A program made the position numbers and the translations under genes. The notes under the pieces were generated by a model. That model saw only the letters and a list, made by a program, of their open reading frames with translations. It had not been told where the DNA came from and did no database searches. Shown piece by piece: positions 6,386 to 64,000 of a DNA stretch of 64,000 bases. Source of the stretch: Candidatus Cloacimonadales bacterium (GTDB taxonomy: Bacteria > Cloacimonadota > Cloacimonadia > Cloacimonadales > JAFGVF01); NCBI GenBank assembly GCA_963663475.2, contig CAXXJV010000001.1:1696001-1760000 (forward strand), in the 5' to 3' direction. Positions within the stretch are counted from its first letter, which is position 1. Each line of letters begins with the position of its first letter.

Positions 6386-6391
6386 GTTGTT

Positions 6392-6480: not shown

Positions 6481-6501
6481 TTATTTGGGATTATAATAAG
6501 T

Positions 6502-7957: not shown

Positions 7958-7963
7958 AAATTA

Positions 7964-8581: not shown

Positions 8582-8583
8582 CC

Positions 8584-9795: not shown

Positions 9796-9849
9796 AATCT
9801 TGTTTGATTTTATTCTAATTATCTAGGGAGACTTGTAGGTCTGAAAAAG

Positions 9850-10656: not shown

Positions 10657-10657
10657 A

Positions 10658-39684: not shown

Positions 39685-39988
39685 GAACTAGTTATTATAA
39701 ATATATTATATCCAATCTGCCATCTATTGCTTTTTAACTGGCAATTATTCCTTCTCATTATTCTGAAATTCTCAGTTTGTTGCTCTTTCGAAGATGTGGT
39801 TATTTTTATCAGGAGTAAAAAATGAGTTATGCAACAATATTTGTGAAGTCTACTATTACTTTATACTACTGATTTAATTTTTCAAAAAATATTTGCACTG
39901 AAAAATTAAACCAAACAATGCTTGACAAGAAACTATTATAGATATACTTTTTGCTTGTAGTTATAATAATTTCACTTAGGAGGTGGAT

Positions 39989-42900: not shown

Positions 42901-43111
42901 TATACGTTATAGTTTAAAAGATAAGGGAAATGTAAGGATATCAATATACAATCTTAAAGGGCAAAAAATTCATCGGGATGAAATTATATCTCAAGAAAAA
43001 GGTTATCATAGTTATGTTTGGGATGGACGCAAACAAACTTCTGGTATCTACTTCGTAGAGTTTGTCAGTGGAAAATATAAAGAAGTTCGAAAAGTAACTT
43101 TAAGAAAATAA
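39989..43111 (+). CDS. Secreted multidomain protein (Ig-like, cadherin-like, LamG/ConA-like) with C-terminal sorting domain
   Basis: Signal peptide; NGDVTVTAT; KSYNLNIQR; FSIQAWVR...WYLVTGVYDG...FPGNIRNLRIW; LPVELSSF; YPNPFNP...IYNLKGQ. Confidence 0.85.
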   Translation: MLMHNKKKCYFLILYLLIFNLSLFANLPSLDIEAEVEFSVNPERFIFNRTSTSSFTLENFTFNTNTTEYNYSTFYPADSLKITFPSAGNYQLETTFYGSISGNQTTFIQALVNGCICVPLIEAESSTGMDGNGNPNANTNSNVLTIVSDPGEANEKIYTLRFRRRADTEPTTIVISETAYEFSALVTGVSSIINGDNIASLQETNWSVNPITGTAYFNGNQLIPLSNGDVTVTATLENDNSISAVSETYTLSGISNWSPHLSSLELIDKYDVNINLSPQFTSNPNDAGDYTCSIVDEYSTLRLKLKAPVDCQVYIDDARVSSNGCSYLKIPPTDPINGPLYINYVIKVENSQGAKSYNLNIQREVKERLKYGRTSGNPPHLASAIGDVFGFNTVQTDKFSIQAWVRWTSETSEGQPWANIASQTYSSSGSNGTFWLQHNYNNTSFEFAINPTGTRRYVLSDASKVTIQRGVWYLVTGVYDGDRSPVRIYINDDDVSDRGVYTEGQVLAPDASAAYNFNVGKMPYGGRQFPGNIRNLRIWVEKALTATEIANDFPNTPLAGSSEDDSDFSWPLNEISNGSISNGNGSLNLSMVDVQEDDFVACCTNNRASGKALVHRPEKMDLSSATSESVILFQADGYSGNNFKFNILGPLENASKSMEVWDHNSNSWKTSDVISEGIAIDSELGNPTTGTYFWIPVRLATSTDGAGRYVDDDDDDDYDGNDTDAQGRTQYNTMLPLPTVAPMNDPFTVSGTLIGNEQHPLTEKYVILGYDAVEKGRLITGTSTLTASKDGKSNGSYTLVSDVPLYRVEVRTQDDILVTDVDNAEGWDETLENGGVINLDPITLPVELSSFTVSAISNGAKLQWVTQTESNISGYHVYRALVEDFSQSELVSPVIESNNSVQTQIYSYTDSDIMLNVDYYYWLKATEFSGEFRIYGPVSIFLEENEVTPEVPIFITGIESLYPNPFNPQVNIRYSLKDKGNVRISIYNLKGQKIHRDEIISQEKGYHSYVWDGRKQTSGIYFVEFVSGKYKEVRKVTLRK

Positions 43112-48975: not shown

Positions 48976-50448
48976 ATGAAAAATAAATTAAACTTAATCT
49001 TACTATTTGCTTTTGTAGCTTTGTTTGGACAAAGTCCAGACCAATTAGCCAGTAGATTTTATCAGATATCAGACCAATATGATGCAATAGGAGCTTCCTA
49101 CTGTTTAGTAACTGGAGATCAGATATACAACTATTCTTATGGTTGGAAAGATTATGATAGACAGCTCAGAATTGATAGTGATACAAAATTTAGAATAGCT
49201 TCTATCTCAAAAATTGTTACTGCTCTTGCCGCTATGAAGCTTGTTGAGAATAATCTTGTAGATTTAGATAGTGATGTTTCTTCTTATTTGGGATTTACTC
49301 TAAGAAATCCAAACTTCCCAGATAATCAAATAACCCTAAGACACCTGCTTACACATACTTCTGGCTTAAGAGATAGTAATGCTTACACAAATTTCATAAG
49401 TCAATCTTACTCTCAAACCCCCCCTGCTATATCTCAACTGCTAATGACAAGTGGTAGCTTTTATAATTCTTCTATTTGGACAAGTTATTATGAACCTGGC
49501 CAAGCAAGTGGTTGGGATTACTCTAACCTGGCTGCTGGACTTGTAGCAACTTTAGTTGAAAATGTTGCTCAAGAACATTTCTCTACTTATGTTCAAGATA
49601 ATTTCTTGAATCCTTTGGGGATTGAAGCCTGTTGGAATAACTTTTCTGCCTTAAGTGATATAAATGATTTAGCTGTCTTATACAGATACGTAGGTGGTCA
49701 GCCTAGTCCTCAAGCAGATAATTATCAAGGTGTCTATCCTGAAGAGATTGATTTAAATCAAATACCTTTTGGCTGGAATGGTTTAATCTATGCCCCTCAA
49801 GGTGGATTAAGGATTAGTACTAGTGACCTAGCTAAAATATTCATGATGATGCGGGATAGAGGGTCTTATAATGGGCAAGTTATCCTAGAAGAAGCTACAA
49901 TCAATCAGATGGAAGACTTAAATTGGACAGGTTCAGGTTTAGGAGGTTTCTTTACTCAAATGGGCTTGCAACTTCAAAGAACTTATGACCTTTTCCCTAA
50001 TGAACTATTCTTTGGTCATGCAGGGGAAGCTTATGGTTTAATTAGTGATGCTTATTATAACCTAGAAAGAGATATTATCTTAGTCTTTCTTACTAATGGT
50101 GGAAATTATTCTTATGGAAACCTATTTTATGATTATGAAGAATCTATCTTCTCAGCTACTAAAGAATGGTTGGATGCTGTTTCTAATAATAACCAAGTTA
50201 TTGCTAATGAGGATGTTAATATTTACCCTAACATTATTAATTCTCTTGATCAGAAAATCTCAGTTTCTACTAAGGATAAGCTTTCTTATATGGCTCTATA
50301 TAACTTAAAAGGACAGTTAATTAAGAGATTTACTAATCCCAAAAAGGAAATTTCTCTTAAGCAAACAAGGTTGGGAAGTGGTTTTTATATTCTTAAAATT
50401 GCTAGTGGGAATAAAATATTCACCAGGAAACTGATAATAAAAAAATAA
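48976..50448 (+). CDS. Secreted serine hydrolase (class C beta-lactamase/PBP-like) with C-terminal sorting domain
   Basis: FRIASISK (SxxK), LLTHTSG, YSN (YxN), GHAG; IYPN...LYNLKGQ...SGFYIL. Confidence 0.9.
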   Translation: MKNKLNLILLFAFVALFGQSPDQLASRFYQISDQYDAIGASYCLVTGDQIYNYSYGWKDYDRQLRIDSDTKFRIASISKIVTALAAMKLVENNLVDLDSDVSSYLGFTLRNPNFPDNQITLRHLLTHTSGLRDSNAYTNFISQSYSQTPPAISQLLMTSGSFYNSSIWTSYYEPGQASGWDYSNLAAGLVATLVENVAQEHFSTYVQDNFLNPLGIEACWNNFSALSDINDLAVLYRYVGGQPSPQADNYQGVYPEEIDLNQIPFGWNGLIYAPQGGLRISTSDLAKIFMMMRDRGSYNGQVILEEATINQMEDLNWTGSGLGGFFTQMGLQLQRTYDLFPNELFFGHAGEAYGLISDAYYNLERDIILVFLTNGGNYSYGNLFYDYEESIFSATKEWLDAVSNNNQVIANEDVNIYPNIINSLDQKISVSTKDKLSYMALYNLKGQLIKRFTNPKKEISLKQTRLGSGFYILKIASGNKIFTRKLIIKK

Positions 50449-50524: not shown

Positions 50525-52987
50525 ATGAAAAAGTTAATCATTAAAATAAATGGTATGTCCTGTGCTTCTTGTTCTGCCACTATTGAAAGGGCATTAAAGA
50601 AAGTTGAAGGTCTGATTGATGTAAATGTTAACTATCCTGCAGGTAAGGCTTTTGTTACTTATGAACCTGAAAGAATTGATGTTTCTTATATTGAAGAATT
50701 AATTACCAAGGTAGGTTATGATGTTGTTGAATCTTATGATCCTGAAGCAAATCAAACTAGTGTAAATACCATCAAATTAAACGTGACAGGAATGTCCTGT
50801 GCCTCTTGCTCTTCAGCTGTAGAAAGAACACTAAAAAAGACTTGTGGGGTTAAGGCAGTTAATGTAAATTTAGCTTCTGAAATTGCAACAATCCAAATAG
50901 ATTCAAATCTTACAAATGAAAAAGCTCTAAAAGAAGCGGTTATCAATGCAGGCTATGGTATTCAAACAGAGAAGGCTCTAGATAATGAAGCAGAAAACTT
51001 GCAAGCTGCTAAAAAGAGGATGATAATAATTTGGGCTGTTACTCTTCCCATTATGGTTTGGATGATTCCTATGATGCTTTTCGGAATAATGTGGCCTGAT
51101 CATATAACTCACAATATCGGAGTACTTCTTCTCGCCTCTATAGGCCTGTTTACTGTTGGGATGAAGACTTTTAAATCAGCTTTTAAATCTCTAATTCATG
51201 CTTCTGCAAATATGGATGTTTTGATTACTCTAGGAACAGGTGCTGCTTATATAACAGGATTTCTTCACTTCTTTATGGATATTGCTTCTTTTGCAGGAAT
51301 CTCAGCAATGATAATGGCTTTTCACCTCACTGGAAGATATATTGAAGTAAAAGCAAAAGGACGAGCTTCTCAAGCAATTAAGAAATTATTAGAGCTGGGG
51401 GCTAAAACTGCTCTAATTGAAGAGGATGGTCAAGAAAAAGAAGTTCCTGTAGAATCATTAGAGTTAGGCCAAATTATGCTAGTAAAACCAGGATCAAAGA
51501 TACCTACTGATGGACAAATAGTAGAGGGGGCAACAAGTATTGATGAATCAATGGCTACTGGAGAATCTTTTCCAGTTAAAAAAGTTATTGGAGATAATGT
51601 CTTAGGTGCTACAATTAATCAGAATGGTTTTATCAAAGTTAGGGTTGAGAAAATAGGCAAAGAGACTTTTTTATCACAAATTATCAAAATGGTTGAAGAG
51701 GCTCAAGGTTCAAAAGTACCTATTCAAGAGTTTGCTGATAAAGTGACTGCTTTTTTCGTTCCTATCGTGATTTTACTAGCTCTTATAGCTTTTGCCAGCT
51801 GGTTAATTTTTCCTGATACTCTACAAGCAATCAGTCTTTGGGCCTCCCAATATCTTGCTTGGGTTAATCCTCAAGCAAATTCACTAACTCAGGCTATTTT
51901 TGCCACTGTTGCAGTACTTGTTATCGCTTGTCCATGTGCCTTAGGCCTAGCAACTCCAACAGCTCTGATGGTTGGTTCTGGTATGGGAGCTGAAAATGGT
52001 ATTCTGATCAGAAATGGAGCTGCTATCCAGACTATGAAAGATGTTGCTGTAATAGTGTTTGATAAAACAGGTACTATTACCAAAGGCAAACCTGAAGTAA
52101 CTGATATTTATTCTAATTCATTAAGTGAAACACAAGTTATGCAATTAGCTGCTAGCTTAGAAAGTAGGTCAGAACATCCCCTAGCAAGAGCTATGATAAA
52201 TTATTGTAAGACAAAAAATATCAGTTTTGAACAAGCAAAAGCTTTTGCATCCCATTCAGGATTAGGTTTGAGTGGACAAGTTAAAGATAAGAAAATCTTT
52301 TTAGGAAATAGGAAACTTCTAGAAGAACATGCTATTGATTATCAGAATTATGCTGATAGAATTGATAAACTTGAGAAAGAAGCTAAAACGGTAATTTTGC
52401 TAGCTGATGAGAAAGAGATGCTAGCTTTAATAGCAGTTGCAGATGCCCTTAAAGAAGATTCAGGAATGGCAATTGCTAGATTACATAAACTGGGATTTAA
52501 AACAGCTATGATTTCTGGCGATAATGATAAGACTGCTCAGGCTATAGCTAAAAAGGTAGGTATAGATTTTGTAGCCTCACAAGTTTTACCAGACCAAAAA
52601 GTAGAAGAGATTAAAAAATTTCAAGAAAAATATGGTTTGGTAGCAATGGTTGGAGATGGTATAAACGATGCACCAGCTTTAAAACAAGCTAATGTTGGAA
52701 TAGCAATTGGAACTGGTACAGATATTGCTATTGAATCATCTGATATTACCTTAGTTAAAGGTTCCTTAATGAGTGTTGTGCAAGCTATTAAACTATCTCA
52801 AGAGACTTTTAAAAAGATTAAACAAAACCTTTTCTGGGCCTTTGCCTATAATCTTATAGCTATTCCTCTAGCTTTCACTGGTATGTTACACCCTGTTATT
52901 GCTGAAATTGCTATGGCTACAAGTTCAATTACCGTTGTAACAAACTCAAATAGACTTAGAAAGAGAAATCTAAATCCGAATTGGTAA
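50525..52987 (+). CDS. copA: Cu(I)-translocating P1B-type ATPase
   Basis: Two GMSCASC HMA domains, CPC, DKTGT, SEHP, GDGIND, YN, MxxSS. Confidence 0.95.
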   Translation: MKKLIIKINGMSCASCSATIERALKKVEGLIDVNVNYPAGKAFVTYEPERIDVSYIEELITKVGYDVVESYDPEANQTSVNTIKLNVTGMSCASCSSAVERTLKKTCGVKAVNVNLASEIATIQIDSNLTNEKALKEAVINAGYGIQTEKALDNEAENLQAAKKRMIIIWAVTLPIMVWMIPMMLFGIMWPDHITHNIGVLLLASIGLFTVGMKTFKSAFKSLIHASANMDVLITLGTGAAYITGFLHFFMDIASFAGISAMIMAFHLTGRYIEVKAKGRASQAIKKLLELGAKTALIEEDGQEKEVPVESLELGQIMLVKPGSKIPTDGQIVEGATSIDESMATGESFPVKKVIGDNVLGATINQNGFIKVRVEKIGKETFLSQIIKMVEEAQGSKVPIQEFADKVTAFFVPIVILLALIAFASWLIFPDTLQAISLWASQYLAWVNPQANSLTQAIFATVAVLVIACPCALGLATPTALMVGSGMGAENGILIRNGAAIQTMKDVAVIVFDKTGTITKGKPEVTDIYSNSLSETQVMQLAASLESRSEHPLARAMINYCKTKNISFEQAKAFASHSGLGLSGQVKDKKIFLGNRKLLEEHAIDYQNYADRIDKLEKEAKTVILLADEKEMLALIAVADALKEDSGMAIARLHKLGFKTAMISGDNDKTAQAIAKKVGIDFVASQVLPDQKVEEIKKFQEKYGLVAMVGDGINDAPALKQANVGIAIGTGTDIAIESSDITLVKGSLMSVVQAIKLSQETFKKIKQNLFWAFAYNLIAIPLAFTGMLHPVIAEIAMATSSITVVTNSNRLRKRNLNPNW

Positions 52988-53059: not shown

Positions 53060-53225
53060 TAAACCCAAATAATGTAGCAGACCTTTGTGAATAGCAGAAT
53101 CTTTTTTGCAAAAGTAAGCTACATTATTTTCAGGAATATATATTATATGCCTTCAAATTCCGTAACTTATTTTGCTAAAAGAATCTAGCACTCTTCATCA
53201 AAGTTCTACTGCACCATTCTGGTTA
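53060..53225 (+). mobile_element. Family C element (preceded by a right-end fragment, 53043-53062)
   Basis: AAACCCAAATAATGTAGCAGA...TCTACTGCACCATTCTGGTTA. Confidence 0.8.
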
Positions 53226-53419
53226 AAAGAATTAATTTTTCTAAATCCTAGTTAAATAATGGGAGATAATGTTAAATAATATCTAGCAAAGTTATAGATA
53301 ATATTGTCATAGTTTGCAATTACTATTTTTAGGGATAGGTTTGTTAAGACTAACTTAATATCTATTGACAAAATTAAGTCCTCCAGTGATTTGTAGATAA
53401 AAAATCAAAGGGAGAAGGG

Positions 53420-53953
53420 ATGAAAAATAAAAAGAGAAATTTAATAATTTTGTTACTTTTGCTAGTTACAGTAACAATGTTAATTTCAGTAGAAGTCAAA
53501 CAACATTGTGGAAAGCATTTTCCTAAAGCAGACCAGGATTCTTTAAGGGTAACTATTACTGGTATTGTGCAATTAAATGAGAACCAGCTCCAGTTAGTTG
53601 AAGATTCAACAAAGGTAGCTTATAATTTAATTATTCCTGAGAATATGGAAAATGAGATGGATAAAATCCAAATGGGCAAGAGATATAATTTTTCTGGTAA
53701 AAATTCTAGGGGTGGCTTAGTGGTTGAGAAGTATAGTCTATGTCAAGGTGATCATAAGGCAGGTAGCCATCATGTAGATCAAGCTAGATGTATAGGTTGT
53801 AGACTTTGTATTAAGCAGTGTCCTGAGGGGGCAATCACAATGGTAAAAGGCAAAGCAGTAATCGATCAAGACAAGTGCATTGATTGTGGTATTTGTGTTG
53901 ATGGTAACGGTAAATTCAAAGGTTGCCCAGTAAAGGCTATAGAAAAGAAATAG
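53420..53953 (+). CDS. Exported protein with C-terminal 2x[4Fe-4S] ferredoxin domain
   Basis: Signal peptide; CIGCRLCIKQCP and CIDCGIC-x9-CP. Confidence 0.85.
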   Translation: MKNKKRNLIILLLLLVTVTMLISVEVKQHCGKHFPKADQDSLRVTITGIVQLNENQLQLVEDSTKVAYNLIIPENMENEMDKIQMGKRYNFSGKNSRGGLVVEKYSLCQGDHKAGSHHVDQARCIGCRLCIKQCPEGAITMVKGKAVIDQDKCIDCGICVDGNGKFKGCPVKAIEKK

Positions 53954-53962
53954 GAGTCATAA

Positions 53963-54499
53963 ATGAAGAAATCAATAATTTTTATTCTTGTTTTAACAAG
54001 TATTATTTTCACTTTATTTGCAGTTTATCAGATTAACTCTATTAGGTGTAATAATTGTGGAAGGTGTTTGAGTACATGTGATGAGGATGCGATCTATTAT
54101 GATGCTAGTCTTCATAGTTATCAAATTGATCCTGATCTTTGTGAGGATTGTGGTGATTGTGCAGATAGGTGCCCTCGTAATGCAATATCTCAAGTTGCAG
54201 TTTCAAATGACTTAGGTGATGTAAATCCTGTTAGTTTAGAAGTTAGTGTTTTTCCTAATCCAACAGCTTCTAGAGCAGTATTTAAAGTAATTTCTCAAGA
54301 CAGAATAAGTTCAAGAGATTTAGTGATATATAATATTAAGGGTCAAAAAGTTAAAGAATTAAAGTTTGACGAGAAGACTAATTCTGTAGGTTGGGATTTA
54401 ACAGATGACTTAGGAAATAGGGTTCCATCAGGTAATTATTTATTTAAATATTCAACAAGTGATAAAGAAATATCAAAACTTTTAACAGTTATAAAATAG
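53963..54499 (+). CDS. Exported 2x[4Fe-4S] ferredoxin fused to FlgD-Ig/T9SS-like sorting domain
   Basis: Signal peptide ...TLFA; CNNCGRCLSTC and CEDCGDCADRCP; VFPNP...IYNIKGQKVK...WD...PSGNYL. Confidence 0.88.
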   Translation: MKKSIIFILVLTSIIFTLFAVYQINSIRCNNCGRCLSTCDEDAIYYDASLHSYQIDPDLCEDCGDCADRCPRNAISQVAVSNDLGDVNPVSLEVSVFPNPTASRAVFKVISQDRISSRDLVIYNIKGQKVKELKFDEKTNSVGWDLTDDLGNRVPSGNYLFKYSTSDKEISKLLTVIK

Positions 54500-54506
54500 G
54501 ATAATC

Positions 54507-54761
54507 ATGAAAAAAAAGCTATTAACTATTTTAGTAATAGCAGTCATATTTTTAGGGTTCCTCTTTGCTTCTGAAGTAGTAGAGAACCCTTTTGTTCGTA
54601 AATATGATTGCGTTGGTTGTGGAGATTGTCTTGATGCTTGCCCAGTTAATGCAATAGAACTTGTAAATGGGAAAGCTGTAATCGATAATGAGAAGTGTAT
54701 TAACTGCAATATTTGTGTTGGGACCTGTACTTATGATGCCATTGAAGGGGGGCAGCAATGA
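54507..54761 (+). CDS. Exported 2x[4Fe-4S] ferredoxin
   Basis: Signal peptide ...FLFA; CVGCGDCLDACP and CINCNICVGTC. Confidence 0.88.
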   Translation: MKKKLLTILVIAVIFLGFLFASEVVENPFVRKYDCVGCGDCLDACPVNAIELVNGKAVIDNEKCINCNICVGTCTYDAIEGGQQ

Positions 54762-55003
54762 AGAGAGTAATTATTATATTAGTAGCACTTATTATCTTGT
54801 TTACTTTTATTGCCTGTAAGAAACCAACTGAGAAAGAATATGGAATTGATAAATCATCATGTAATTCTTGTGGTGAATGTATTGCTGTCTGCCCAAGTGA
54901 TGCTATAGAGTATAATCTTGAAGGTAAGGCAGTTATTGATCAAAGTAAGTGTACCAGCTGTGGTGAGTGTATAACAGTCTGTCCTCAAGGAGCTATTTAC
55001 TAA
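54758..55003 (+). CDS. Lipoprotein 2x[4Fe-4S] ferredoxin
   Basis: Lipobox FIAC; CNSCGECIAVCP and CTSCGECITVCP. Confidence 0.88.
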   Translation: MKRVIIILVALIILFTFIACKKPTEKEYGIDKSSCNSCGECIAVCPSDAIEYNLEGKAVIDQSKCTSCGECITVCPQGAIY

Positions 55004-56205
55004 TGAAAAAGCTAGTATTAATCTCATTTTTAATATGTATATGTCTATGTTTAAATGCTTCTTATTGGAATCAGACCAGGTTTTCATTCTATAAATCGCA
55101 AGATACTGAAGTATATGGAGCAGAGAATAACTTTGTTTCTGAAATATTACTTAATAAATTAAATATTCAAGTTCAAATGAATTCTTTGCTTTCGGAGGAA
55201 GGCTTTGATGAACCAAATTCATATGTAACTAATGAAATAAGAAGTCTAGCTACCTACACTTATAATCCTCAATCAAAACTTCTTTTAGGGTATAATATTG
55301 ATTATTATGACTATGATAAAACCCAGAGCTCATTTATCTATAATTGGATTAATCTGCCTGTTCAGCCCCTAGTTAAGAATTATCTCTACTTGATTTCAAA
55401 AAATGAATGGGCTAACTTTACTTTACTAGCTGGTCTGAGAGGAAGAGCAACAGGTATTGATTATAAAATTGGTATACCTGATGCAATAAATTCAGCTCAA
55501 GCAGAACATTATGATGAGTTTTATAAAGATATAGCTTTAGCCTACCAACTTAGTAATAATATTGCTATCTACGCTGTCTATGAAAACAAAACTTTCTATA
55601 GTTCGAATACAAATTTTAATGATCCAGGCAGAGATTTTGATTACACCCATTATGGGGGAGGGGTTAATTTTACTTCTAGAGATTTCTTAGGTGGTAAAAT
55701 ATCCGAAGATTTTCAATACTTAAGAAAAGATTCTGAGCAATATGCAGATTATCAAAGACATAACTTTATTAATAAACTAAGATATAGTTATAATATCACA
55801 CCTACTATAAGCTCATTTGTTTCATATATATCAAAGTTCTCTTATGATGATAAGGAAAAAGAGTTCTATCGTTTAGCTAACATGGTCAGAGTTCAAGCAC
55901 GTTATAACCTAGCTAATTCAAATTATAAGGCATTTCTTATAGCTGGAACTAGTTTAAGTCTAGAAAACTTAAATAGAATTTATTTTGCTTATGCAAAATA
56001 TCCACTAAGTAAGTCATTTTCTCTTTCTCTAGAAGATAGGTATAGTCATAATGTATATAATACTATAATTGCATCTTTAGATTATCAGTTAAATTCTAAC
56101 TTCATGGTTTATTTAGAGAACAGTAATTCACAGTCTTTTAGCAATATAAATACTTACGATTTTAAAAACACACTTACAATAGGTACAAGGATGCTTTTTA
56201 GATGA
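55003..56205 (+). CDS. Putative outer-membrane beta-barrel protein
   Basis: Start at ATG 55003 overlapping the upstream TAA; signal peptide; Tyr/Phe/Asn-rich amphipathic strands; C-terminus LTIGTRMLFR. Confidence 0.7.
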   Translation: MKKLVLISFLICICLCLNASYWNQTRFSFYKSQDTEVYGAENNFVSEILLNKLNIQVQMNSLLSEEGFDEPNSYVTNEIRSLATYTYNPQSKLLLGYNIDYYDYDKTQSSFIYNWINLPVQPLVKNYLYLISKNEWANFTLLAGLRGRATGIDYKIGIPDAINSAQAEHYDEFYKDIALAYQLSNNIAIYAVYENKTFYSSNTNFNDPGRDFDYTHYGGGVNFTSRDFLGGKISEDFQYLRKDSEQYADYQRHNFINKLRYSYNITPTISSFVSYISKFSYDDKEKEFYRLANMVRVQARYNLANSNYKAFLIAGTSLSLENLNRIYFAYAKYPLSKSFSLSLEDRYSHNVYNTIIASLDYQLNSNFMVYLENSNSQSFSNINTYDFKNTLTIGTRMLFR

Positions 56206-57185
56206 TTACCACATTAATTGAAGGTTTTACTCTTGGCTTTTCAACAGGCACTATATGCCTTGTCTCTTGTACTCCTATCTATCTTCCTTACCTTATATCA
56301 GAGAATAGGTCATTTAGTAAAAATATCTGGAAGGTTCTTGAAATATCACTAGGTAGATTTTTCTCTTATATCGTCTTTGGACTCTTAGCAGGCTGGATAG
56401 GTTCTAATATTGCTACTATTAATCGAGACCTCTTTACTGGGATAGCATATAGTCTGCTATCCCTATTTTTAATTCTTAGTGTAATAAGAACTAATAAGAA
56501 AGAAAAGAAGTGTCACATTCCTGCTTTTGCCAAGATAACCTCATCGGCATTTCTACTTGGTGTTTTTACAGGAATCAACTTCTGTCCTTCCTTCTTGATT
56601 GCACTATCTAAAGCAGTTGACTTAGCAGGTCCCATCTCCGGAGCTCTACTATTTTTAGGTTTCTTCTTCGGAACTTCTATTTTCTTAATACCTTTGGCTT
56701 TCTCTGGCTTTTTAGCTTATATAAAAAACTTAAAGTATGTTGCCCAATTAGCCTCTATAGCTATAGCTGTCTGGTTCCTTTTCTCAGCAGGACTTAAGTT
56801 TTATGATGTCTATAAAAGTACTCAAGCCTACTATCTTGATCCTTCAGCAAGCGATTTTCCAATGACACTAATTATTCAAGAAGATAATCAAGCATATTTT
56901 GCTGAATTAGCAGACTCTCTCTTCAATCTCAAAGCAGAGAACTTCGCCCTGCTTACTATTAAATCAGACTCTCTTAAACTGCAAGAAGTGAATAATAGTA
57001 ACTTGATTTATCTTATAGATGCTGATCTAGTGAAAAATCTAGACCATGAAAAACTATCTCAGATACATTATTATGAAGTTGAAGCAGGCTATCCTGTTCC
57101 AGATATTATTCATTTTCTAAAAAATTCGGTTATGAAGCTGAATAGAGATGATAAAATTCACTTCTCTTTTAGCAGAAAACACTAA
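56202..57185 (+). CDS. DsbD_2 / TauE-like polytopic membrane protein with soluble C-terminal domain
   Basis: GFSTGTICLVSCTP, GRFFSY, GINFCP, FFFGT; about 6 TM. Confidence 0.75.
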   Translation: MITTLIEGFTLGFSTGTICLVSCTPIYLPYLISENRSFSKNIWKVLEISLGRFFSYIVFGLLAGWIGSNIATINRDLFTGIAYSLLSLFLILSVIRTNKKEKKCHIPAFAKITSSAFLLGVFTGINFCPSFLIALSKAVDLAGPISGALLFLGFFFGTSIFLIPLAFSGFLAYIKNLKYVAQLASIAIAVWFLFSAGLKFYDVYKSTQAYYLDPSASDFPMTLIIQEDNQAYFAELADSLFNLKAENFALLTIKSDSLKLQEVNNSNLIYLIDADLVKNLDHEKLSQIHYYEVEAGYPVPDIIHFLKNSVMKLNRDDKIHFSFSRKH

Positions 57186-57368: not shown

Positions 57369-57454
57369 GGAGAATTAGTCCTAATTGGTAAGGCAGCGGT
57401 CTTGAAAACCGCCGGGCTCTGCCCTTGGGGGTTCGAGTCCCTCATTCTCCGCCA
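57369..57454 (+). tRNA. tRNA-Ser(TGA)
   Basis: GGAGAAT/ATTCTCC acceptor, anticodon arm GCGGT-CTTGAAA-ACCGC, long variable arm, GTTCGA, CCA. Confidence 0.95.
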
Positions 57455-57463
57455 TTCTTGAAC

Positions 57464-57554
57464 GGAGAGGTGGCCGAGCGGCTTAAGGCGTGCGCCTGCT
57501 AAGCGTATGTAGGCTAATCCCCTACCGAGGGTTCAAATCCCTCCTTCTCCGCCA
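57464..57554 (+). tRNA. tRNA-Ser(GCT)
   Basis: Anticodon arm TGCGC-CTGCTAA-GCGTA, long variable arm, GTTCAA, CCA. Confidence 0.95.
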
Positions 57555-57584
57555 TTAAAAACATAAAAATTTATAAAATAGTGT

Positions 57585-57659
57585 TGGGCTGTCGTCAAGT
57601 GGTAAGACACATGGTTTTGGTCCATGCATTCCCGGGTTCGAATCCTGGCAGCCCAGCCA
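57585..57659 (+). tRNA. tRNA-Gln(TTG)
   Basis: TGGGCTG/CAGCCCA acceptor, CATGG-TTTTGGT-CCATG, GTTCGAA, CCA. Confidence 0.95.
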
Positions 57660-57692
57660 TCACTATTTTATAAATTTTTTTTCTGTTTATAC

Positions 57693-57766
57693 TGGGGTAT
57701 AGTCTAATGGTAGGACAGCAGGTTCTGGCTCTGTGTGTCGGGGTTCGATTCCCTGTACCCCAGCCA
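57693..57766 (+). tRNA. tRNA-Gln(CTG)
   Basis: TGGGGTA/TACCCCA acceptor, GCAGG-TTCTGGC-TCTGT, GTTCGA, CCA. Confidence 0.95.
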
Positions 57767-57790
57767 TAAACTCTCTTATTATTTGACCTA

Positions 57791-58317
57791 GATATTACCC
57801 TGTAAGGGTTTAATAAAATGATAAATAATGTATTATCATAAATCTATGGTATATATGATGTTATTTAACCCTTTCAGGGTTAGGCTTTGTTTTACATCCA
57901 GTACCCGGGGTTGCATTCCCTTCAGGAATTTACCCCAGGCTAAACTATTTATCCCCTTTGGGGATTTAAGACTTATCCCTTCAGGATTTAGGACTTCTAA
58001 TCATCAAAACATACTATTAACAGTATATTCTTACTTGTAACATACTGTCATTCAATTAATATGCTATACTATAAGTCTCTTTTTATCCACCAAACTTGAA
58101 CTTGAGCCAAAGAATGGCTCAAGTTCAAGTTTGGTGGGAATAATATAGGAAAATGAGAATATTTCATTACTATATTGATTCATCAAAAATCCCTGAAAGG
58201 GATAAAATAATTTAGCCCAGGGTAAGATGCTGAAAGTATCGCAAGCCTGGGTAATGATGGCTAGCCCAAAGATATTACCCTGTAAGGGTTTAATAAAATG
58301 ATAAATAATGTATTATC
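57791..58317. repeat. Repeat cluster: family D units in opposite orientations, a 23-bp IR hairpin (family F) and 47-bp direct repeats at both ends
   Basis: 57791-57837 = 58271-58317; IR 58087-58109 / 58115-58137 with a single arm also at 5259-5279; 57843-57988 matches 6502-6648. Confidence 0.85.
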
Positions 58318-58481
58318 CTAAATAGTGCAATAGATCTTTGAGAATAGCAGAATATTATTTTGCGAAAATAACTTACATAATTCTTCCGAACATATATATT
58401 ATATGCGTCAGAATTCTGCAAGCTATTTTGCTAAAAGAATCTGCACTCTTCACTAAAGCTCTACTACACTATCTGGGTTAA
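58316..58481 (+). mobile_element. Family C element
   Basis: TCCTAAATAGTGCAATAGA...TCTACTACACTATCTGGGTTA. Confidence 0.8.
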
Positions 58482-60147: not shown

Positions 60148-60351
60148 TTATTTCTCTACATCATATCCAGCATTCTCAATAGCCTCAATTAAAGTTTCAG
60201 CAGGTATATCTCCTTTAATTTTTACCTCTTTTTTCTTAAGATTGAACTTAAGGTCTTTAACTCCCTCAATATTTTCCAATGCCTTGGTAATAGTAGCTAC
60301 ACAGTGATTACAGTTCATATTTAGAACTTTAAATTTGTTAGTTTTAGTCAT
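60148..60351 (-). CDS. copZ: Copper chaperone (HMA domain)
   Basis: MNCNHC; AIENAGY. Confidence 0.85.
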   Translation of the reverse strand: MTKTNKFKVLNMNCNHCVATITKALENIEGVKDLKFNLKKKEVKIKGDIPAETLIEAIENAGYDVEK

Positions 60352-60393
60352 TTTTTTTCTCACTTATTTATTTTATTTGATTTTTAACCCAAA

Positions 60394-61461
60394 TTATGTA
60401 CTTTTAAAGCTCAACTTTAGTTTTCTGCCTAGATATTTACTTAAAGATAAAAGGAAGAAAATTGAAAAGATTATGGTAAGACTTATAAGCCACCAAGAAA
60501 GCTGATCATGTCCTTCTACTATTTCCAATGTCTTAGGGCTAGCATAATTGGTGAGCTGGTAGATATAGTTTATAATATAGCCACCAATAATACCTGTTAC
60601 AGTTATAACTGCTAGATAGATTAGAATAATCTTTTTTCCCATACTCCTAGCAATCAGGGTTATAGTCGCAATATTTGTGGCAGGACCCACCACTAAAAAA
60701 ACAAAAATGGCTCCTGGAAGAAGTCCTTTGCTAAAGAGAGCTAAGGCAATGGGAAGAGAGCTGGTATCGCAAACATAAAGCGGTATTCCTAACAATAAAA
60801 TCACTAAGATTTGCAGAAAATAATTTCCTGCAACATAAGCAAACATTGTATTAGGAATTATTGAAATAAATCCAGCTAAGATTATACCAAGCAGAAGTTG
60901 GGGAGCTAAATCATCCAAAAATTCTATGTAAGAATAGTGGAAAAACTCAGCAAATCTGTTTCTTTTACTAGCTTTATCTTCATGATCAGAACATGTTGAA
61001 CAGCATCCTGAGGAACAAGTAGGGTTTGCTTTAAGAAAATGCTTATCATCTTCTTGATTAGAAAAAAGGTCAGTAACAAAACCACCAATAATCCCTGAAA
61101 AAAGAGCGTATATGGGCTTAAAAATTGCAAAAATTGGGCCTAGCATAGCGTAAGTGGGGACTATGTTGTCTATACCAGTTTGAGGTGTAGATATTAAAAA
61201 AGAGACTGTTGCTCCTGATGAAGCACCACTTTTCTTTAACTGAAAAGCTGTTGGAATTACTCCACAAGAGCAGAGGGGCATAGGAACCCCTAATAAAGAA
61301 GCTTTGACAGATGACCAAAGACCTTTTTTCCCTAAGTATTTAGTAATGAACTCTGTGCCTATGAAAATATGCAAGATACCTGCAAAAGTTAAACCAATGA
61401 ATAAATAGGGGGCTATTGATAAATAGACCTCATAGATTGCCACAAGAATATTTTTTATCAC
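60394..61461 (-). CDS. DUF318/ArsP-like permease (putative metal efflux)
   Basis: PLCSCGVIP, FLISTP, PLYVC, GPATN; Cys/His loop CSSGCCSTCSDH. Confidence 0.85.
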   Translation of the reverse strand: MIKNILVAIYEVYLSIAPYLFIGLTFAGILHIFIGTEFITKYLGKKGLWSSVKASLLGVPMPLCSCGVIPTAFQLKKSGASSGATVSFLISTPQTGIDNIVPTYAMLGPIFAIFKPIYALFSGIIGGFVTDLFSNQEDDKHFLKANPTCSSGCCSTCSDHEDKASKRNRFAEFFHYSYIEFLDDLAPQLLLGIILAGFISIIPNTMFAYVAGNYFLQILVILLLGIPLYVCDTSSLPIALALFSKGLLPGAIFVFLVVGPATNIATITLIARSMGKKIILIYLAVITVTGIIGGYIINYIYQLTNYASPKTLEIVEGHDQLSWWLISLTIIFSIFFLLSLSKYLGRKLKLSFKST

Positions 61462-61979: not shown

Positions 61980-62708
61980 TTATAGTTTTCCTTTCATTCT
62001 ATAACTATTTCCATCTATTAGAACTGTTTCTGCATGATGAACTAATCTATCTACTATAGCAGTAGTTATTACATTATCTCCAAAGGATTCTCCCCACTCT
62101 TGGAATAGCCTATTAGAGGTAATGATAATAGACCTATATTCATATAACTCATTTATTAGCTTAAAAAATAAACTCGCATTTACTGCCTTAATAGGAAGAT
62201 AGCCTATCTCATCAATAATAATAAGATCATTTTTTACTAACTTTGAAATCCATTTTTTGAAGTTATTTTCTACATTAGCAATAATCATTTCATCAATTAG
62301 GTCATTCATATTGTAAAAAATAACTTTATATCCTTTTAAGATAGCTTCATATCCTAAAGCTATAGATATATGAGTTTTACCTACACCAGGAGGACCCATT
62401 AATATTTTGTTTTCTCTGTTATCTATCCAAGTAAAGTCCTTCCACTCAGTAATCATTCTTTTAGTTATTGAATGCTGATATTTAAAATCAAAATCATCAA
62501 AACTTTTCAAAAGAGGAAATTTTGACCTTCTAATCTGTAAATTTATCATCGTTTGATTTCTACTATTGCATTCATTATCAATTACATATGAAAGAAAATT
62601 CATATAAGATAACTGATTATCTTGTGCATATTTAAGATATGATTCTAAATTATTAATAGTATGCCTGCATCTTAGTCTAAATAGATTTTTCTTTAATGTT
62701 TCGATCAT
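61980..62708 (-). CDS. istB: IS21 helper ATPase IstB
   Basis: GPPGVGKTH, IIDEIGY, ITSN, W, DRLVHH, GNSYR. Confidence 0.96.
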   Translation of the reverse strand: MIETLKKNLFRLRCRHTINNLESYLKYAQDNQLSYMNFLSYVIDNECNSRNQTMINLQIRRSKFPLLKSFDDFDFKYQHSITKRMITEWKDFTWIDNRENKILMGPPGVGKTHISIALGYEAILKGYKVIFYNMNDLIDEMIIANVENNFKKWISKLVKNDLIIIDEIGYLPIKAVNASLFFKLINELYEYRSIIITSNRLFQEWGESFGDNVITTAIVDRLVHHAETVLIDGNSYRMKGKL

Positions 62709-64000
62709 TTTTTTACCACCTTATTATAAATTGATAAATCTCTCTGTATAACTGATTTTTTTGTTTCTATTATCCCATTGACTTGATTTTGATAGTTAGC
62801 AGATAACTTATTGCCTTTTATCTCTTCTTTGACTATAGACTCTATCTTTGTTGCTTTTATATCTTCTAATTCTAGTGCTTTAGAAATTATGTTTGACCAA
62901 TTTAAGTATTTATTTTTATTATACATTTTTAAAAATGCTAATAGTTGCTCTCTGGGATTTCTGTGATTATGTGCTATGAGTAAATTTAATAAAAGGATTA
63001 TCTTGTCATTATTGGGGAATAGTGAGCAAATATCTTCCTTTATATTATTAATTGTTTTCGAGTAGTCTATGTAATGACATTGAGATATGATAGGTTTTGT
63101 TCTTTCTCTGGAAATCCTATGAGATGCAACTTTTTTTCTACTATTCCTATCTATTATTTCTAAAGTGTCTTCATTTTCTTTAACTATAACTATCTTTTGT
63201 TGATAGATATAAGGAACTGAATATTTGTTACCATTCCATGAGATAAGACCTGTTTTATCTACTTTTCGTGTCTCTGCAATATTCAGGTTATATCTTCTTA
63301 ATAGTTTTTCTTCTTCTTTAAACATTACTATAGGTCTTTCTCTAAGCGTACTGTGGATACGATTATTTACTTCTTCTAACCAGCTTTTTGATTTCAACTT
63401 AACTTCAGATAAACTAGTAAATACTTCACCATCAAGAAAATCATACTTAACTTCTTGAACTTGTCTTTCTACCAACCCTTTACTTTCAGGATCATAACCT
63501 TCACAAACATAAGGACTTATTGTTAGATTATTCATAAATTGAAAAAACTTATTATTATAAGTTACTTCTCGATAAATCTCCTTTATAACGACTAGTTTTG
63601 TTTGATCATAAACCATTGTCTCTGGGATATATCCAAAATATTCAAAGCAATCTTTATGGGCTTGGATGAAGTCTTGAGTCTTATAAGGTCTTGTTTGAAA
63701 ATGTACATATTTCATTCGTGAATAGCAATAGCTAAACACACAAAAGTATATTTTTAACTTGCTCTTATCAGATAAATAGATATTATACTCTCCGGGATCA
63801 ACCTGCATCTGATTTCCTGGTTCATAATTGACAACTCGATAATAACGCTTAGTTGGTTGTATTAAATTATTTTTTATTTTTTTTGAAAAATTAAAAAAAG
63901 CTCTTTGTTTTACAGGTAATTTTCCATGCTGTTTGGATAATTTACGATATAATTTACTTAATCGCATATTAGGAAATTTTGTTAAATGTTTGCTAATTTC
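62705..64000 (-). CDS. istA: IS21 transposase IstA (5' part outside the window)
   Basis: PGNQMQVD, YSR, VYDQ, PESKGLVE, RIHST, YSVP; frame stays open from 63967 to the window end. Confidence 0.95.
   Translation of the reverse strand, partial: EISKHLTKFPNMRLSKLYRKLSKQHGKLPVKQRAFFNFSKKIKNNLIQPTKRYYRVVNYEPGNQMQVDPGEYNIYLSDKSKLKIYFCVFSYCYSRMKYVHFQTRPYKTQDFIQAHKDCFEYFGYIPETMVYDQTKLVVIKEIYREVTYNNKFFQFMNNLTISPYVCEGYDPESKGLVERQVQEVKYDFLDGEVFTSLSEVKLKSKSWLEEVNNRIHSTLRERPIVMFKEEEKLLRRYNLNIAETRKVDKTGLISWNGNKYSVPYIYQQKIVIVKENEDTLEIIDRNSRKKVASHRISRERTKPIISQCHYIDYSKTINNIKEDICSLFPNNDKIILLLNLLIAHNHRNPREQLLAFLKMYNKNKYLNWSNIISKALELEDIKATKIESIVKEEIKGNKLSANYQNQVNGIIETKKSVIQRDLSIYNKVVKK

Follow-up and report, generated by a model that had tools for sequence, protein, structure and literature searches.

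Six tightly packed genes in the window (the whole 64,000-nucleotide stretch of DNA analysed), together with a gene pair upstream of them, may encode a haem-free and quinone-free route by which electrons cross the cell envelope, from the inner membrane to the surface, through [4Fe-4S] ferredoxin domains. This reading, to which we give about an even chance, draws on what sequence and structural models show: which parts are encoded, which targeting signals they bear, how well they are conserved, and how one ferredoxin is predicted to sit in the barrel. Such a chain, if real, would perform a function like that of a porin-cytochrome conduit without shared components, in a host of the uncultured phylum Cloacimonadota from which cytochromes, quinones and Tat appear to be absent. 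Literature searches did not find a published description of such a system. The genes concerned are as follows.

33837–34640, + strand: NapH-like membrane polyferredoxin, 267 aa (Pfam Fer4_5, E = 9.1e-20, and Fer4_10)
34637–34957, + strand: fifth leader-bearing 2x[4Fe-4S] ferredoxin, 106 aa (Pfam Fer4, E = 5e-13)
53420–53953, + strand: ferredoxin fdx1, 177 aa (Pfam Fer4, E = 7.8e-13)
53963–54499, + strand: ferredoxin fdx2, 178 aa (Pfam Fer4, E = 2.1e-11)
54507–54761, + strand: ferredoxin fdx3, 84 aa (Pfam Fer4, E = 4e-13)
54758–55003, + strand: ferredoxin fdx4, 81 aa (Pfam Fer4, E = 1.3e-17)
55003–56205, + strand: barrel, 400 aa from ATG (the longest ORF begins at GTG 54967)
56202–57185, + strand: DsbD_2 gene, 327 aa (PF13386, E = 1.3e-18)

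The ORFs of the six-gene operon lie at these coordinates across positions 53420–57185, with junctions of +9, +7, −4, −1 and −4 bases in gene order. An earlier note on this DNA had described six tightly coupled genes, the first four encoding ferredoxins with two CxxCxxC motifs each; the junctions confirm the former, and motif counts and Pfam Fer4 matches the latter. The NapH-like and fifth-ferredoxin genes, which overlap by 4 bases, lie 19 kb upstream of the operon (33837–34957) and are found within the ferredoxin cluster in other genomes. The exported-ferredoxin system extends beyond 53420–57185, and this pair belongs to it. At least two CxxCxxC motifs occur in 30 of the 6447 ORFs (≥50 aa) of the whole genome, and only six of these 30 carry a hydrophobic leader, namely fdx1–fdx4 and the two encoded at 33837–34957. 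Leaders on CxxCxxC proteins are confined to this system in the genome, and the observation is therefore not due to chance.

Sixty-four loci with the core cluster were fetched, 55 of them labelled Cloacimonadota and some Fibrobacterota. Fifty-two loci extend at least 3 kb upstream of DsbD_2; of these, 47 have a leader-bearing Fer4 ORF and 36 the strict core. A hydrophobic leader is carried by 162 of the 178 Fer4 ORFs of the clusters. Gene order is kept across a phylum, which supports the interpretation given in the earlier note. One relative, G030, has the ferredoxins and the barrel, and DsbD_2 was not found anywhere in it with this query; its cluster is followed by Fur and FeoB, an adjacency seen in this locus only. 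In locus L029 a true DsbD-thioredoxin gene adjoins the ferredoxin cluster.

The ferredoxins differ in build. After its leader, fdx1 has a poorly conserved N-domain of ~90 aa and then a Fer4 dicluster domain; in the second motif of the latter, 9 residues are inserted ahead of the last Cys-Pro, a type of motif shared with the fifth ferredoxin. In fdx2 the leader and the Fer4 dicluster domain are followed by a C-terminal sorting domain of T9SS type A, and fdx3 consists of a leader and a minimal 2x[4Fe-4S] domain with the second motif ending in C-[TSNK]-aromatic rather than CP. The eight Cys are invariant among aligned homologues of fdx4 (27/27) and fdx3 (34/34), and the Cys-Pro and Ala-Ile positions are also kept. 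Within a 23-row alignment of fdx1 homologues, the second Cys of a motif is Asp in four and Thr in two; Cys loss always hits this second position, which also varies in natural 3Fe and Asp-ligated ferredoxins. Judging by these alignments the Fer4 features are maintained under selection, and the domains may carry [4Fe-4S] clusters.

The N-termini of fdx1–fdx4 are Lys-rich and then hydrophobic (best 15-mer Kyte-Doolittle mean 2.95–3.57), with positive charges preceding the hydrophobic helix and none placed after it. Sequence inspection found no twin arginine in any of the four, in agreement with the earlier note, and the leaders are predicted to be of the Sec type. fdx4 bears the lipobox FIAC, the Cys of which (Cys20) is invariant in 27/27 aligned homologues. 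The C-terminus of fdx2 scores above the curated cut-offs for both Por_Secre_tail (28.9 against 27 bits) and TIGR04183 (33.4 against 23); this T9SS tail is also found on ORFs 48976–50448 and 39983–43111, and a T9SS pore gene is present in the genome as an SprA_N match. fdx2 is accordingly a predicted cell-surface protein, attached via its sorting domain. Its slot in other genomes is occupied by lipoproteins of 343 to 1720 aa, most of which have Fer4 at both ends and from one to many fn3 domains in between. A Chitinispirillaceae genome that bears TatC encodes an fdx3 orthologue with a Tat-type leader (RRRTILK) and an fdx4 orthologue with NRRTVLR, and in that lineage the proteins would therefore be exported with their cofactor already bound, although most Fibrobacterota orthologues keep Sec-type leaders in genomes that bear TatC. 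Extracytoplasmic addressing, as proposed before, is therefore backed by the lipobox, the T9SS tail, the fn3 fusions and one Fibrobacterota Tat leader. The lipobox and the T9SS tail agree with the different layers proposed there for fdx4 and fdx2, and the leaders of fdx1, fdx2 and fdx3 may be either cleaved signals or signal anchors.

As had been supposed from the sequence, the 400-aa product of 55003–56205 folds as a β-barrel, with ~20 strands in the AF2 model (pLDDT 89.2, pTM 0.78), a signal peptide, long loops on one side and no plug domain of its own. Profile searches returned no Pfam or NCBIfam family, and the Foldseek matches were generic outer-membrane barrels only, the best being 22-strand TonB-receptor barrels (TM 0.55–0.62). 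The family numbers 139 representatives among 1.84 billion proteins. Structure prediction of the barrel with a ferredoxin, a check proposed earlier, placed fdx4 in the lumen with an ipSAE of 0.70 (ESMFold2; runs of 0.65, 0.70 and 0.73, best control 0.00). Of 157 solved complexes 116 come up to this mark, as do 2 of 215 mismatched pairs, counts that are only approximate for the alignments used here. The runs share at least 87% of contacts, with a partner pLDDT of at least 77. The 98–118 contacts fall on nearly every strand, and fdx4 is therefore predicted to lie inside the lumen as a plug. Residues at the contacts show higher conservation than the others (1.91 against 1.71 bits, permutation p = 0.009) and include R260, the most conserved residue of the barrel, along with K196, R296 and R148. 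We know of no solved ferredoxin-in-barrel complex for the model to remember.

The interpretation changes at the inner membrane, where the NapH-like polyferredoxin (33837–34640), not seen in the earlier note, is the likelier candidate for electron entry. It combines two CxxxCP motifs of the Fer4_5 type with a Fer4 dicluster domain at the C-terminus, the clusters of which would be cytoplasmic from the charge distribution, and is the sole Fer4_5 match in the genome. NapH-like ORFs in 20 fetched loci, many inside ferredoxin clusters, are 31–42% identical to it, and the gene lies inside the cluster in 15 of the 40 loci with enough flank (≥7 kb). The Fibrobacterota version carries further Fer4 domains as a fusion and directly follows DsbD_2, and one ferredoxin-cluster locus adds an FMN_bind protein. 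Co-occurrence with DsbD_2 adds nothing because NapH-like is not enriched, being present in 72 of the 81 genomes of the phylum and in 29 of the 32 that have DsbD_2, and the pair of NapH-like protein and leader-bearing ferredoxin is found without the barrel module in G014, G037 and G047. The DsbD_2 protein has six helices (AF2 pLDDT 79.5) and, in an alignment of 10 homologues, invariant Cys at C19 and C23 (helix 1), C104 (basic loop) and C128 (helix 4), with a C-terminal α/β domain of ~120 aa, periplasmic by the positive-inside rule. By analogy the protein would most likely serve cluster maturation by keeping ferredoxin Cys reduced; alternatively it may be a second transmembrane redox gate.

A look for tatABC and multihaem cytochromes, also suggested earlier, found no TatC in the genome and no ORF with at least two CxxCH motifs. 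Neither Cytochrom_C_asm (cytochrome c assembly) nor a UbiA-type prenyltransferase (control 14/14) was found in the genome. Two Rnf clusters are present, proposed to supply reduced carriers. Fe-S assembly genes comprise a leaderless NifS-NifU pair only, with no A-type carrier or SufBD found in the genome.

We infer the following order of carriers and direction of flow. Reduced ferredoxin or NAD(P)H in the cytoplasm would load the cytoplasmic clusters of the NapH-like protein, from which electrons would pass to two leader-bearing ferredoxins on the outer side of the inner membrane, fdx1 and the 106-aa protein, next to the small ferredoxin fdx3, and then to the lipoprotein fdx4 in the lumen of the 20-stranded barrel. 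fdx4 would hand them to a surface ferredoxin, which is T9SS-attached fdx2 here and in relatives a long lipoprotein, usually a fibronectin-III stalk with a ferredoxin domain at both ends; the physiological partner may be an acceptor outside the cell or another cell living in syntrophy. Sec exports unfolded chains. Because the phylum is without Tat, the ferredoxins would cross the inner membrane unfolded through Sec and therefore take up their clusters outside the cytoplasm, with DsbD_2 keeping the eight Cys of each domain reduced for maturation, as CcdA does for apocytochromes. The earlier proposal of an Fe-S analogue of a porin-cytochrome wire is partly supported, by addressing, a barrel, conserved gene order, a genome in which Tat and multihaem cytochromes were not found, and a lumen model. 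Several points count against it, among them the Sec-type leaders that persist in Fibrobacterota genomes with TatC and the lack of DsbD_2 in G030. Oxygen would readily damage low-potential clusters exposed on the cell surface, the two Fer4 domains of the surface protein in relatives lie as many as a dozen or more fn3 domains apart, far beyond tunnelling distance unless the stalk bends, the ferredoxin cluster encodes no terminal reductase or oxidase, and cluster insertion into Sec-exported ferredoxins has no known route, extracytoplasmic Fe-S assembly being, to our knowledge, without precedent.

Electrons might instead go no further than the periplasm or the inner face of the outer membrane, without any static wire, the barrel being a channel for small substrates or a pore that moves folded small ferredoxins or lipoproteins to the surface. 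This is unlikely. NapGH-type pairs deliver electrons to the periplasm, the NapH-like and leader-ferredoxin pair stands alone in genomes without the barrel module, NapH-like occurs in 72 of 81 genomes, and a lumen-bound fdx4 would resemble a translocation intermediate; the fdx4–barrel model, being cofactor-free, is just as compatible with a ferredoxin passing through a secretion pore. However, no enzyme that could be fed in the periplasm is encoded in the cluster, a surface location is indicated by fdx2 and the fn3 lipoproteins, and the interface is large, conserved and basic-lined and therefore suggests a stable plug. A traffic in metals is also unlikely. Here the Cys-rich ferredoxin-like proteins would bind iron, FeS(aq) clusters or thiophilic metals and pass them along by way of surface, barrel and a DsbD_2-type permease, for uptake from a sulfidic habitat or for sequestration/efflux, and no periplasmic assembly machine would be needed because cluster binding would be the function. 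The operon sits between copA and copZ/SO_0444 in this genus, Fur and FeoB follow the G030 cluster, and some members of the DsbD_2 family carry a metal-permease annotation. Yet the copper neighbourhood, found in 4 of 64 loci and all in one genus, appears to be a genus-level accident, the Fur-FeoB adjacency is confined to one locus, the partners that do recur (NapH-like, polyferredoxin, FMN_bind) belong among redox proteins, and the whole Fer4 fold signature is conserved, beyond the cysteines.

The alternative offered in the earlier note, a thiol- or metal-binding system kept reduced by the DsbD-like protein, is weakened. Its thiol form, a relay or buffer of cluster-free exported domains with Cys reduced by DsbD_2, is improbable. 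It would accord with Tat not being found in the genome, with the true DsbD-thioredoxin gene beside the cluster in L029 and with the movement of reducing power through Cys pairs by DsbD-family proteins, as described in passages of PMC8238504. Against this, eight-Cys Fer4 domains are not CxxC thioredoxin folds, Cys-to-Asp substitutions and the orthologue Tat leader point to metal clusters, and G030 lacks DsbD_2; thiol relays use CxxC thioredoxin folds. That the proteins are not exported at all, with N-terminal segments acting as anchors of cytoplasmic ferredoxin domains, is very improbable. The h-regions are indeed long and very hydrophobic, but their positive charges lie before the helix and not after, and the invariant lipobox Cys, T9SS tail, fn3 fusions, co-conserved barrel and orthologue Tat leader all argue for export.

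The proposed electron chain resembles several known systems in part. Porin-cytochrome conduits (Shewanella MtrCAB; Geobacter OmaB-OmbB-OmcB) likewise combine a periplasmic carrier, a barrel enclosing a redox protein and a surface lipoprotein, encoded by adjoining genes. In contrast, the cofactor here would be [4Fe-4S] in ferredoxin domains of ~55 aa and not haem, the barrel matches no Pfam family, export would be by Sec without a known cofactor insertion pathway, and the genome shows neither a quinol-oxidising cytochrome nor any gene for quinone synthesis. NapH-like extracytosolic electron-transfer systems are a described class in passages of PMC8238504. The likeness to NapGH lies in a polytopic Fer4_5 protein with cytoplasmic clusters paired with a ferredoxin across the membrane, to which one relative adds FMN_bind. 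Whereas NapG is a four-cluster Tat substrate feeding nitrate reductase from quinol, the partners here are small two-cluster proteins with Sec-type leaders, without a reductase or a UbiA-type gene found and with an outer-membrane module attached.

CcdA/DsbD, which supply reductant to apocytochrome c, are comparable as six-helix DsbD-superfamily proteins with membrane-embedded Cys, beside exported proteins that need reduced Cys for cofactor uptake. The protein here belongs to DsbD_2 (PF13386) and not DsbD_TM, has four invariant Cys, with CxxxC in helix 1 and one Cys in a cytoplasmic loop, lacks a thioredoxin-like partner in the cluster and has an extra C-terminal α/β domain, in a genome with no c-type cytochromes to mature. 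LptD-LptE, in which a lipoprotein plugs a large barrel, parallels the small lipoprotein predicted in the lumen of the barrel encoded beside it, but with no sequence relation, another cargo and function, and here a redox-type domain as the plug. A ferredoxin also meets an outer-membrane barrel in FusA of Pectobacterium, a TonB-dependent receptor that reportedly takes up the [2Fe-2S] ferredoxin of a host plant to obtain iron; the barrel here is without a plug or TonB box domain, and the ferredoxins are the cell's own and carry export signals.

The six genes at window 53420–57185 lie on one strand with junctions of +9, +7, −4, −1 and −4 bases, bearing out the tight coupling claimed in the earlier note. 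They are listed here together with the two genes of a second locus in the window.

53420–53953, +, fdx1, leader-bearing ferredoxin
53963–54499, +, fdx2, leader-bearing ferredoxin with a T9SS sorting tail
54507–54761, +, fdx3, leader-bearing ferredoxin
54758–55003, +, fdx4, leader-bearing ferredoxin, predicted lipoprotein
55003–56205, +, predicted outer-membrane barrel, 400 aa
56202–57185, +, DsbD_2-type membrane protein, 327 aa
33837–34640, +, NapH-like membrane polyferredoxin
34637–34957, +, fifth leader-bearing ferredoxin, 106 aa

Each of fdx1–fdx4 carries two CxxCxxC motifs and matches Pfam Fer4 (E 7.8e-13 to 1.3e-17). A clostridial-type 2×[4Fe-4S] domain, taken as two CxxCxxCxxxC(P) motifs within ~55 residues and an HMM match over the curated cut-off, was found in all five ferredoxins, fdx1–fdx4 and the 106-aa protein. 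The N-termini of fdx1–fdx4 are Lys-rich and followed by a hydrophobic core (best 15-mer Kyte–Doolittle mean 2.95–3.57), and a twin arginine (RR) was sought in the leaders of all five proteins and found in none. In fdx1–fdx4 the hydrophobic region ends [LV]-[FI]-[AS], which is compatible with putative cleavage by signal peptidase I. The lipobox FIAC marks fdx4 as a predicted bacterial lipoprotein, its Cys being invariant in 27 of 27 aligned homologues, and the C-terminus of fdx2 is a T9SS type-A sorting domain by two models (Por_Secre_tail, 28.9 bits against a cut-off of 27; TIGR04183, 33.4 against 23). The same type of tail is present on two other window proteins, and the genome encodes the T9SS pore (SprA_N match, E 3e-17). 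The earlier note had claimed paired CxxCxxC motifs and non-twin-Arg leaders for all four proteins, a lipoprotein (FIAC) and a fusion to a tail common to other secreted proteins here, each of which held. Across the genome, at least two CxxCxxC motifs occur in 30 of 6447 ORFs, and exactly six of these 30, all in this system, have a hydrophobic leader.

In other genomes the slot of fdx2 is occupied by lipoproteins of 343–1720 aa, most of them built of two terminal Fer4 dicluster domains separated by one to many fibronectin-III domains. Fibronectin-III domains are typical of extracellular proteins. The invariant lipobox Cys, the T9SS tail and the fibronectin-III fusions are offered as evidence for a predicted location of the ferredoxin domains outside the cytoplasm. 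Conservation in fdx3 (34 alignment rows) and fdx4 (27 rows) covers all eight Cys, the Cys-Pro and the Ala-Ile positions after it. In fdx1 homologues the lost Cys is the second of a motif, replaced by Asp in 4 of 23 rows and by Thr in 2 of 23; the second motif Cys is the variable position in natural 3Fe and Asp-ligated ferredoxins. This pattern is offered as evidence that the proteins are probably real Fe-S proteins.

The sole Fer4_5 (NapH-like) ORF of the genome lies at window 33837–34640 and encodes a four-helix membrane protein of the NapH family, with two Fer4_5 CxxxCP motifs and a C-terminal dicluster domain. Its gene overlaps that of the 106-aa protein (34637–34957), which likewise combines a Sec-type leader with a Fer4 dicluster domain. 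The NapH-like ORFs of 20 of the fetched loci are 31–42% identical to that of the window, and many lie directly beside ferredoxin genes; this genus therefore has a single system divided between two loci, 19 kb from each other. The NapH-like and leader-ferredoxin pair also stands alone, without the barrel module. Co-occurrence of NapH-like and DsbD_2 genes was considered as a functional clue and set aside, there being no enrichment (29 of the 32 genomes with DsbD_2, 72 of 81 overall). A conserved Cys pair, CPxxxxC, extra to the two CxxxCP motifs, is present in the predicted outward-facing loop after helix 1 of the window protein.

For the protein encoded at 55003–56205, neither Pfam nor NCBIfam gave a family match within an E limit of 0.01. 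AlphaFold2, supplied with an alignment of 31 homologues, folded it alone as a barrel with a pLDDT of 89.2 and a pTM of 0.78, in line with the β-barrel predicted in the earlier note. The model consists of 20 main strands and a signal helix; the turns on one side of the barrel are short, the loops on the opposite side are long, and there is no plug. The signal peptide, even number of closing strands and turn/loop asymmetry are those of a predicted outer-membrane β-barrel, and the penultimate Phe (F399) is nearly invariant among homologues. Foldseek returned generic outer-membrane barrels only, the best TM-scores (0.55–0.62) being to the 22-strand barrels of TonB-dependent receptors. A search of 1.84 billion proteins with the profile yielded only 139 cluster representatives with E no higher than 0.001; the homologues (15 matches) were all named 'hypothetical protein' and had no Pfam domain. 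Among related genomes, the barrel protein was matched in 16 of 41.

Because fdx4 and the barrel form an invariant neighbour pair, they were chosen for complex prediction, using barrel residues 19–400 and mature fdx4 residues 21–81, each with its own alignment. Three runs gave ipSAE values of 0.65, 0.70 and 0.73 (median 0.70), compared with 0.00 for the best of three controls. Of 157 solved complexes, 116 reach this mark, as do 2 of 215 mismatched pairs, though these counts hold only roughly here because the alignments were our own. At least 87% of contacts are shared between the runs, and the partner pLDDT is at least 77. The 98–118 contacts touch nearly every strand, and the ferredoxin is therefore predicted to sit in the barrel lumen, this pairing being among those that the earlier note had proposed to model. 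Contact residues are more conserved than the rest (1.91 versus 1.71 bits, permutation p 0.009) and include R260, the most conserved position of the barrel, as well as K196, R296 and R148. The contacts seem to concentrate toward the long-loop end (mean relative height 0.67, with orientation inferred from the strand list, not coordinates), which is presumably extracellular. A cofactor-free model such as this, in which no affinity is shown, would equally fit a ferredoxin in transit.

The sixth protein, described in the earlier note as a Cys-bearing membrane protein of DsbD_2 type, indeed matches DsbD_2 (PF13386; E 1.3e-18, 68.1 bits against a cut-off of 24.9). Four of its Cys are invariant in 10 homologues: helix 1 contributes C19 and C23, helix 4 contributes C128, and C104 belongs to a strongly basic loop. 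The positive-inside rule would place both the N-terminus and the ~120-aa C-terminal α/β domain on the periplasmic side. The AlphaFold2 model has an overall pLDDT of 79.5, and the C-terminal domain resembles small flavodoxin-like α/β folds at an uninformative Z of about 7.2–7.7. Aligned to true DsbD by hhalign, the protein gave a probability of 3.4%, with the Cys in helices 1 and 4 present, and no thioredoxin-like partner was found in the operon cluster. A profile search of PDB sequences gave 0 matches and a Foldseek search of the PDB returned low-TM rows only. VIA-align found a likeness to RnfA (8ahx_A; Z 9.0, rmsd 6.2, 149 aligned) and to NqrE (7xk3_E; Z 8.7), both below the tool's helical-bundle caution line, and hhalign against the genome's own two Rnf subunits gave probabilities of 0.7% and 0.1%, hence no sequence support. 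Subunits of the RnfA/NqrE type hold a membrane-embedded Fe-S centre, and this weak fold likeness hints that the DsbD_2 protein might, through its four invariant Cys, act as a redox gate across the membrane. A second, different context of this DsbD_2 subfamily is found near position 8001 of each of three loci (L060, L062 and L079), where a 454–455-aa paralogue adjoins a secreted β-helix/NosD-like protein of 1786–1788 aa with no ferredoxins nearby.

The earlier note had proposed checking the genome for tat genes and multihaem cytochromes. TatC was not found in the genome, which is 99.2% complete, and none of the five leaders passed as a Tat substrate; 0 of 6447 ORFs have at least two CxxCH motifs. 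In Cloacimonadota, TatC was found in 1 of 81 genomes, and that one is without the ferredoxin–barrel cluster. One Chitinispirillaceae genome with TatC has an fdx3 orthologue with a textbook Tat leader, RRRTILK followed by an Ala-rich core, and an fdx4 orthologue with NRRTVLR, while the leaders in three other Fibrobacterota-type genomes with TatC are still of Sec type. Tat carries folded, cofactor-loaded proteins, and the two Tat-type leaders are offered as further evidence that the ferredoxins are probably real Fe-S proteins. With Sec leaders and TatC not found, the clusters would therefore need insertion after Sec export. The Fe-S assembly genes of the genome comprise one leaderless NifS–NifU pair; exported Fe-S assembly proteins, an A-type carrier (PF01521) and SufBD were sought in the genome and not found. 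In a habitat that is sulfidic and anoxic, Fe(II) and sulfide may combine into the clusters spontaneously; alternatively, DsbD_2 or some further factor may assist.

The cytochrome c assembly family (Cytochrom_C_asm) was not found in the genome, and with no c-type cytochrome system the DsbD_2 protein cannot serve cytochrome c maturation. A UbiA-type prenyltransferase was likewise not found in the genome (control 14/14), so the NapH-like protein, for which quinol was considered as electron donor, is unlikely to be a quinol dehydrogenase; external quinones may be taken up. The genome has two Rnf clusters. From the CxxCH, Cytochrom_C_asm and UbiA searches, the envelope is otherwise without redox carriers.

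Species-representative genomes scanned with the DsbD_2 alignment yielded 64 loci, 55 of them labelled Cloacimonadota or one of its genera, four Fibrobacterota, Chitinispirillaceae or Chitinivibrionales, one Delongbacteria, one Armatimonadota and three without a phylum label. The DsbD_2 ORF was located by script in 61 loci, 52 of which have at least 3 kb upstream. Among these 52, a leader-bearing Fer4 gene is nearby in 47, at least two small leader-bearing Fer4 genes lie within 3 kb in 41, a barrel-sized ORF is directly upstream of DsbD_2 in 38, and both occur in 36; the synteny search suggested in the earlier note thus shows the gene order to be kept, mostly in Cloacimonadota. Where at least 7 kb is available upstream (n = 40), a NapH-like gene is present in 15 loci, and 15 encode a Fer4 protein that bears a leader and is 300 aa or longer. 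A hydrophobic leader was scored by script in 162 of 178 cluster Fer4 ORFs, the other 16 being mostly contig-end cuts or unrelated large enzymes. When the phylum as a whole was sampled, matches to the DsbD_2 profile came from 32 of 81 genomes and 20 of 34 genera. Individual loci show further arrangements. A Chitinivibrionales locus (L085, 8986–9612) has an FMN_bind-domain protein directly after DsbD_2, and in a Cloacimonadales locus (L029, 9251–10855) a true DsbD (DsbD_TM and thioredoxin) adjoins the cluster. Locus L021 of relative genome G030 (3587–10931) consists of a NapH-like gene, four leader-ferredoxins and the barrel with no DsbD_2, followed directly by Fur and then FeoB.

The observation made in the earlier note is thus confirmed and extended, and its interpretation as an electron conduit is partly supported, on the strength of sequence, conservation and models. 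A cytoplasmic reductant would load the NapH-like protein, from which electrons would pass to the 106-aa protein and fdx1, the leader-ferredoxins at the inner membrane's outer face, then to fdx3, to fdx4 plugged in the barrel and finally to a surface ferredoxin, which would be fdx2 here and a fibronectin-stalked ferredoxin in relatives. The DsbD_2 protein, much as CcdA does for apocytochrome, would most likely keep Cys in the reduced state needed to take up clusters. We infer the carrier order and flow direction, and hold the mechanism overall to be evenly balanced between right and wrong. More tentative, and on balance doubtful, is the full hypothesis that, in Cloacimonadota and in some Fibrobacterota, [4Fe-4S] clusters are assembled outside the cytoplasm on apo-ferredoxins exported by Sec. 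In it, the four-Cys DsbD_2 would be a maturation factor or membrane-embedded redox gate, and the ferredoxin-in-barrel complex would be a wire that crosses the outer membrane without haem and terminates in surface ferredoxins carried by T9SS anchors or fibronectin stalks.

Several points count against a conduit. We know of no precedent for extracytoplasmic Fe-S assembly, surface clusters would be oxygen-sensitive, and the relatives' stalks exceed the length over which electrons could tunnel directly from one end to the other. The operon cluster has no gene for a terminal enzyme. NapH-like genes occur whether or not the barrel module is present, the NapH-like/leader-ferredoxin pair can be self-standing, and G030 has ferredoxins and barrel without DsbD_2. 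A redox unit confined to the periplasm, in which the barrel would serve as a channel for a substrate or as a pore for secreting ferredoxin, is unlikely; in its favour, the predicted complex would accommodate a ferredoxin in transit, and against it, the T9SS tail and fibronectin-III fusions point to the surface. Slightly less probable again is trafficking of iron, Fe-S or thiophilic metals with DsbD_2 as the permease, for which the only pointers are the genus-specific copper neighbourhood (4 of 64 loci) and one Fur–FeoB neighbour. A cofactor-free thiol relay, kept reduced by the DsbD_2 protein, is improbable, the ferredoxins having the conserved pattern of Fe-S proteins. That the ferredoxins are membrane-anchored by their hydrophobic leaders and not exported is very improbable; the lipobox Cys of fdx4 is invariant.

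The conduit reading follows the logic of porin-cytochrome systems, from which the present genes are excluded by the lack of haem motifs and cytochrome c maturation genes. In contrast to MtrB/PioB-type porins, the barrel belongs to no described family by sequence and finds only generic barrels by Foldseek, and at the inner membrane the system has a variant NapGH-type module that lacks quinone, Tat and reductase. The literature searched (subscription journals lie outside its coverage) gave no account of ferredoxins exported by Sec-type leaders together with a barrel. To our knowledge, all characterised Gram-negative outer-membrane electron conduits use multihaem cytochromes and all known exported Fe-S proteins use Tat; if the system works as read, it would be an exception to both rules. 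It also poses a sharp biochemical question, how [4Fe-4S] clusters enter a protein beyond the membrane, and its small parts (~55-aa domains, a 400-aa barrel) are attractive for synthetic bioelectronics. According to PMC13082233, Cloacimonadota are key propionate and amino-acid degraders of anaerobic digesters, and their proposed direct electron exchange (DIET) with Methanothrix rests so far on pilus genes only. If it works as read, the system would supply that proposal with a concrete, testable gene set, and cytochrome-less syntrophs could pass low-potential electrons directly to minerals or to partners, for instance methanogens.

The surroundings of the operon contain the following features.

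50525–52987, CopA P-type ATPase with two HMA domains
60148–60363, CopZ-like chaperone
60394–61461, SO_0444-family Cu/Zn efflux permease
57369–57766, tRNA cluster, tRNA-Ser ×2 and tRNA-Gln ×2
57790–57843 and 58270–58323, 54-nt direct repeat, 98% identical, copies 480 bases apart, just after the tRNA cluster
53064–53250 and 58317–58480, dispersed intergenic repeat of ~170 nt, copies 80–84% identical, bracketing the operon and tRNA cluster
61980–63967, −, IS21-type pair of IstB-like ATPase and integrase-core transposase, at the window's end

The ferredoxin operon, together with four tRNAs and a lipoprotein gene, breaks up the copper set, an arrangement kept within the genus only. A copper link was set aside as a functional clue, copA being adjacent solely in loci of the window's own genus. 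A promoter and terminator scan gave counts not above shuffles (19 versus 21.6 and 2 versus 2.0). The ~170-nt direct repeats were considered as island borders and rejected; the element gives 252 blastn matches genome-wide and is therefore a dispersed repeat, which looks like a MITE- or REP-like family.
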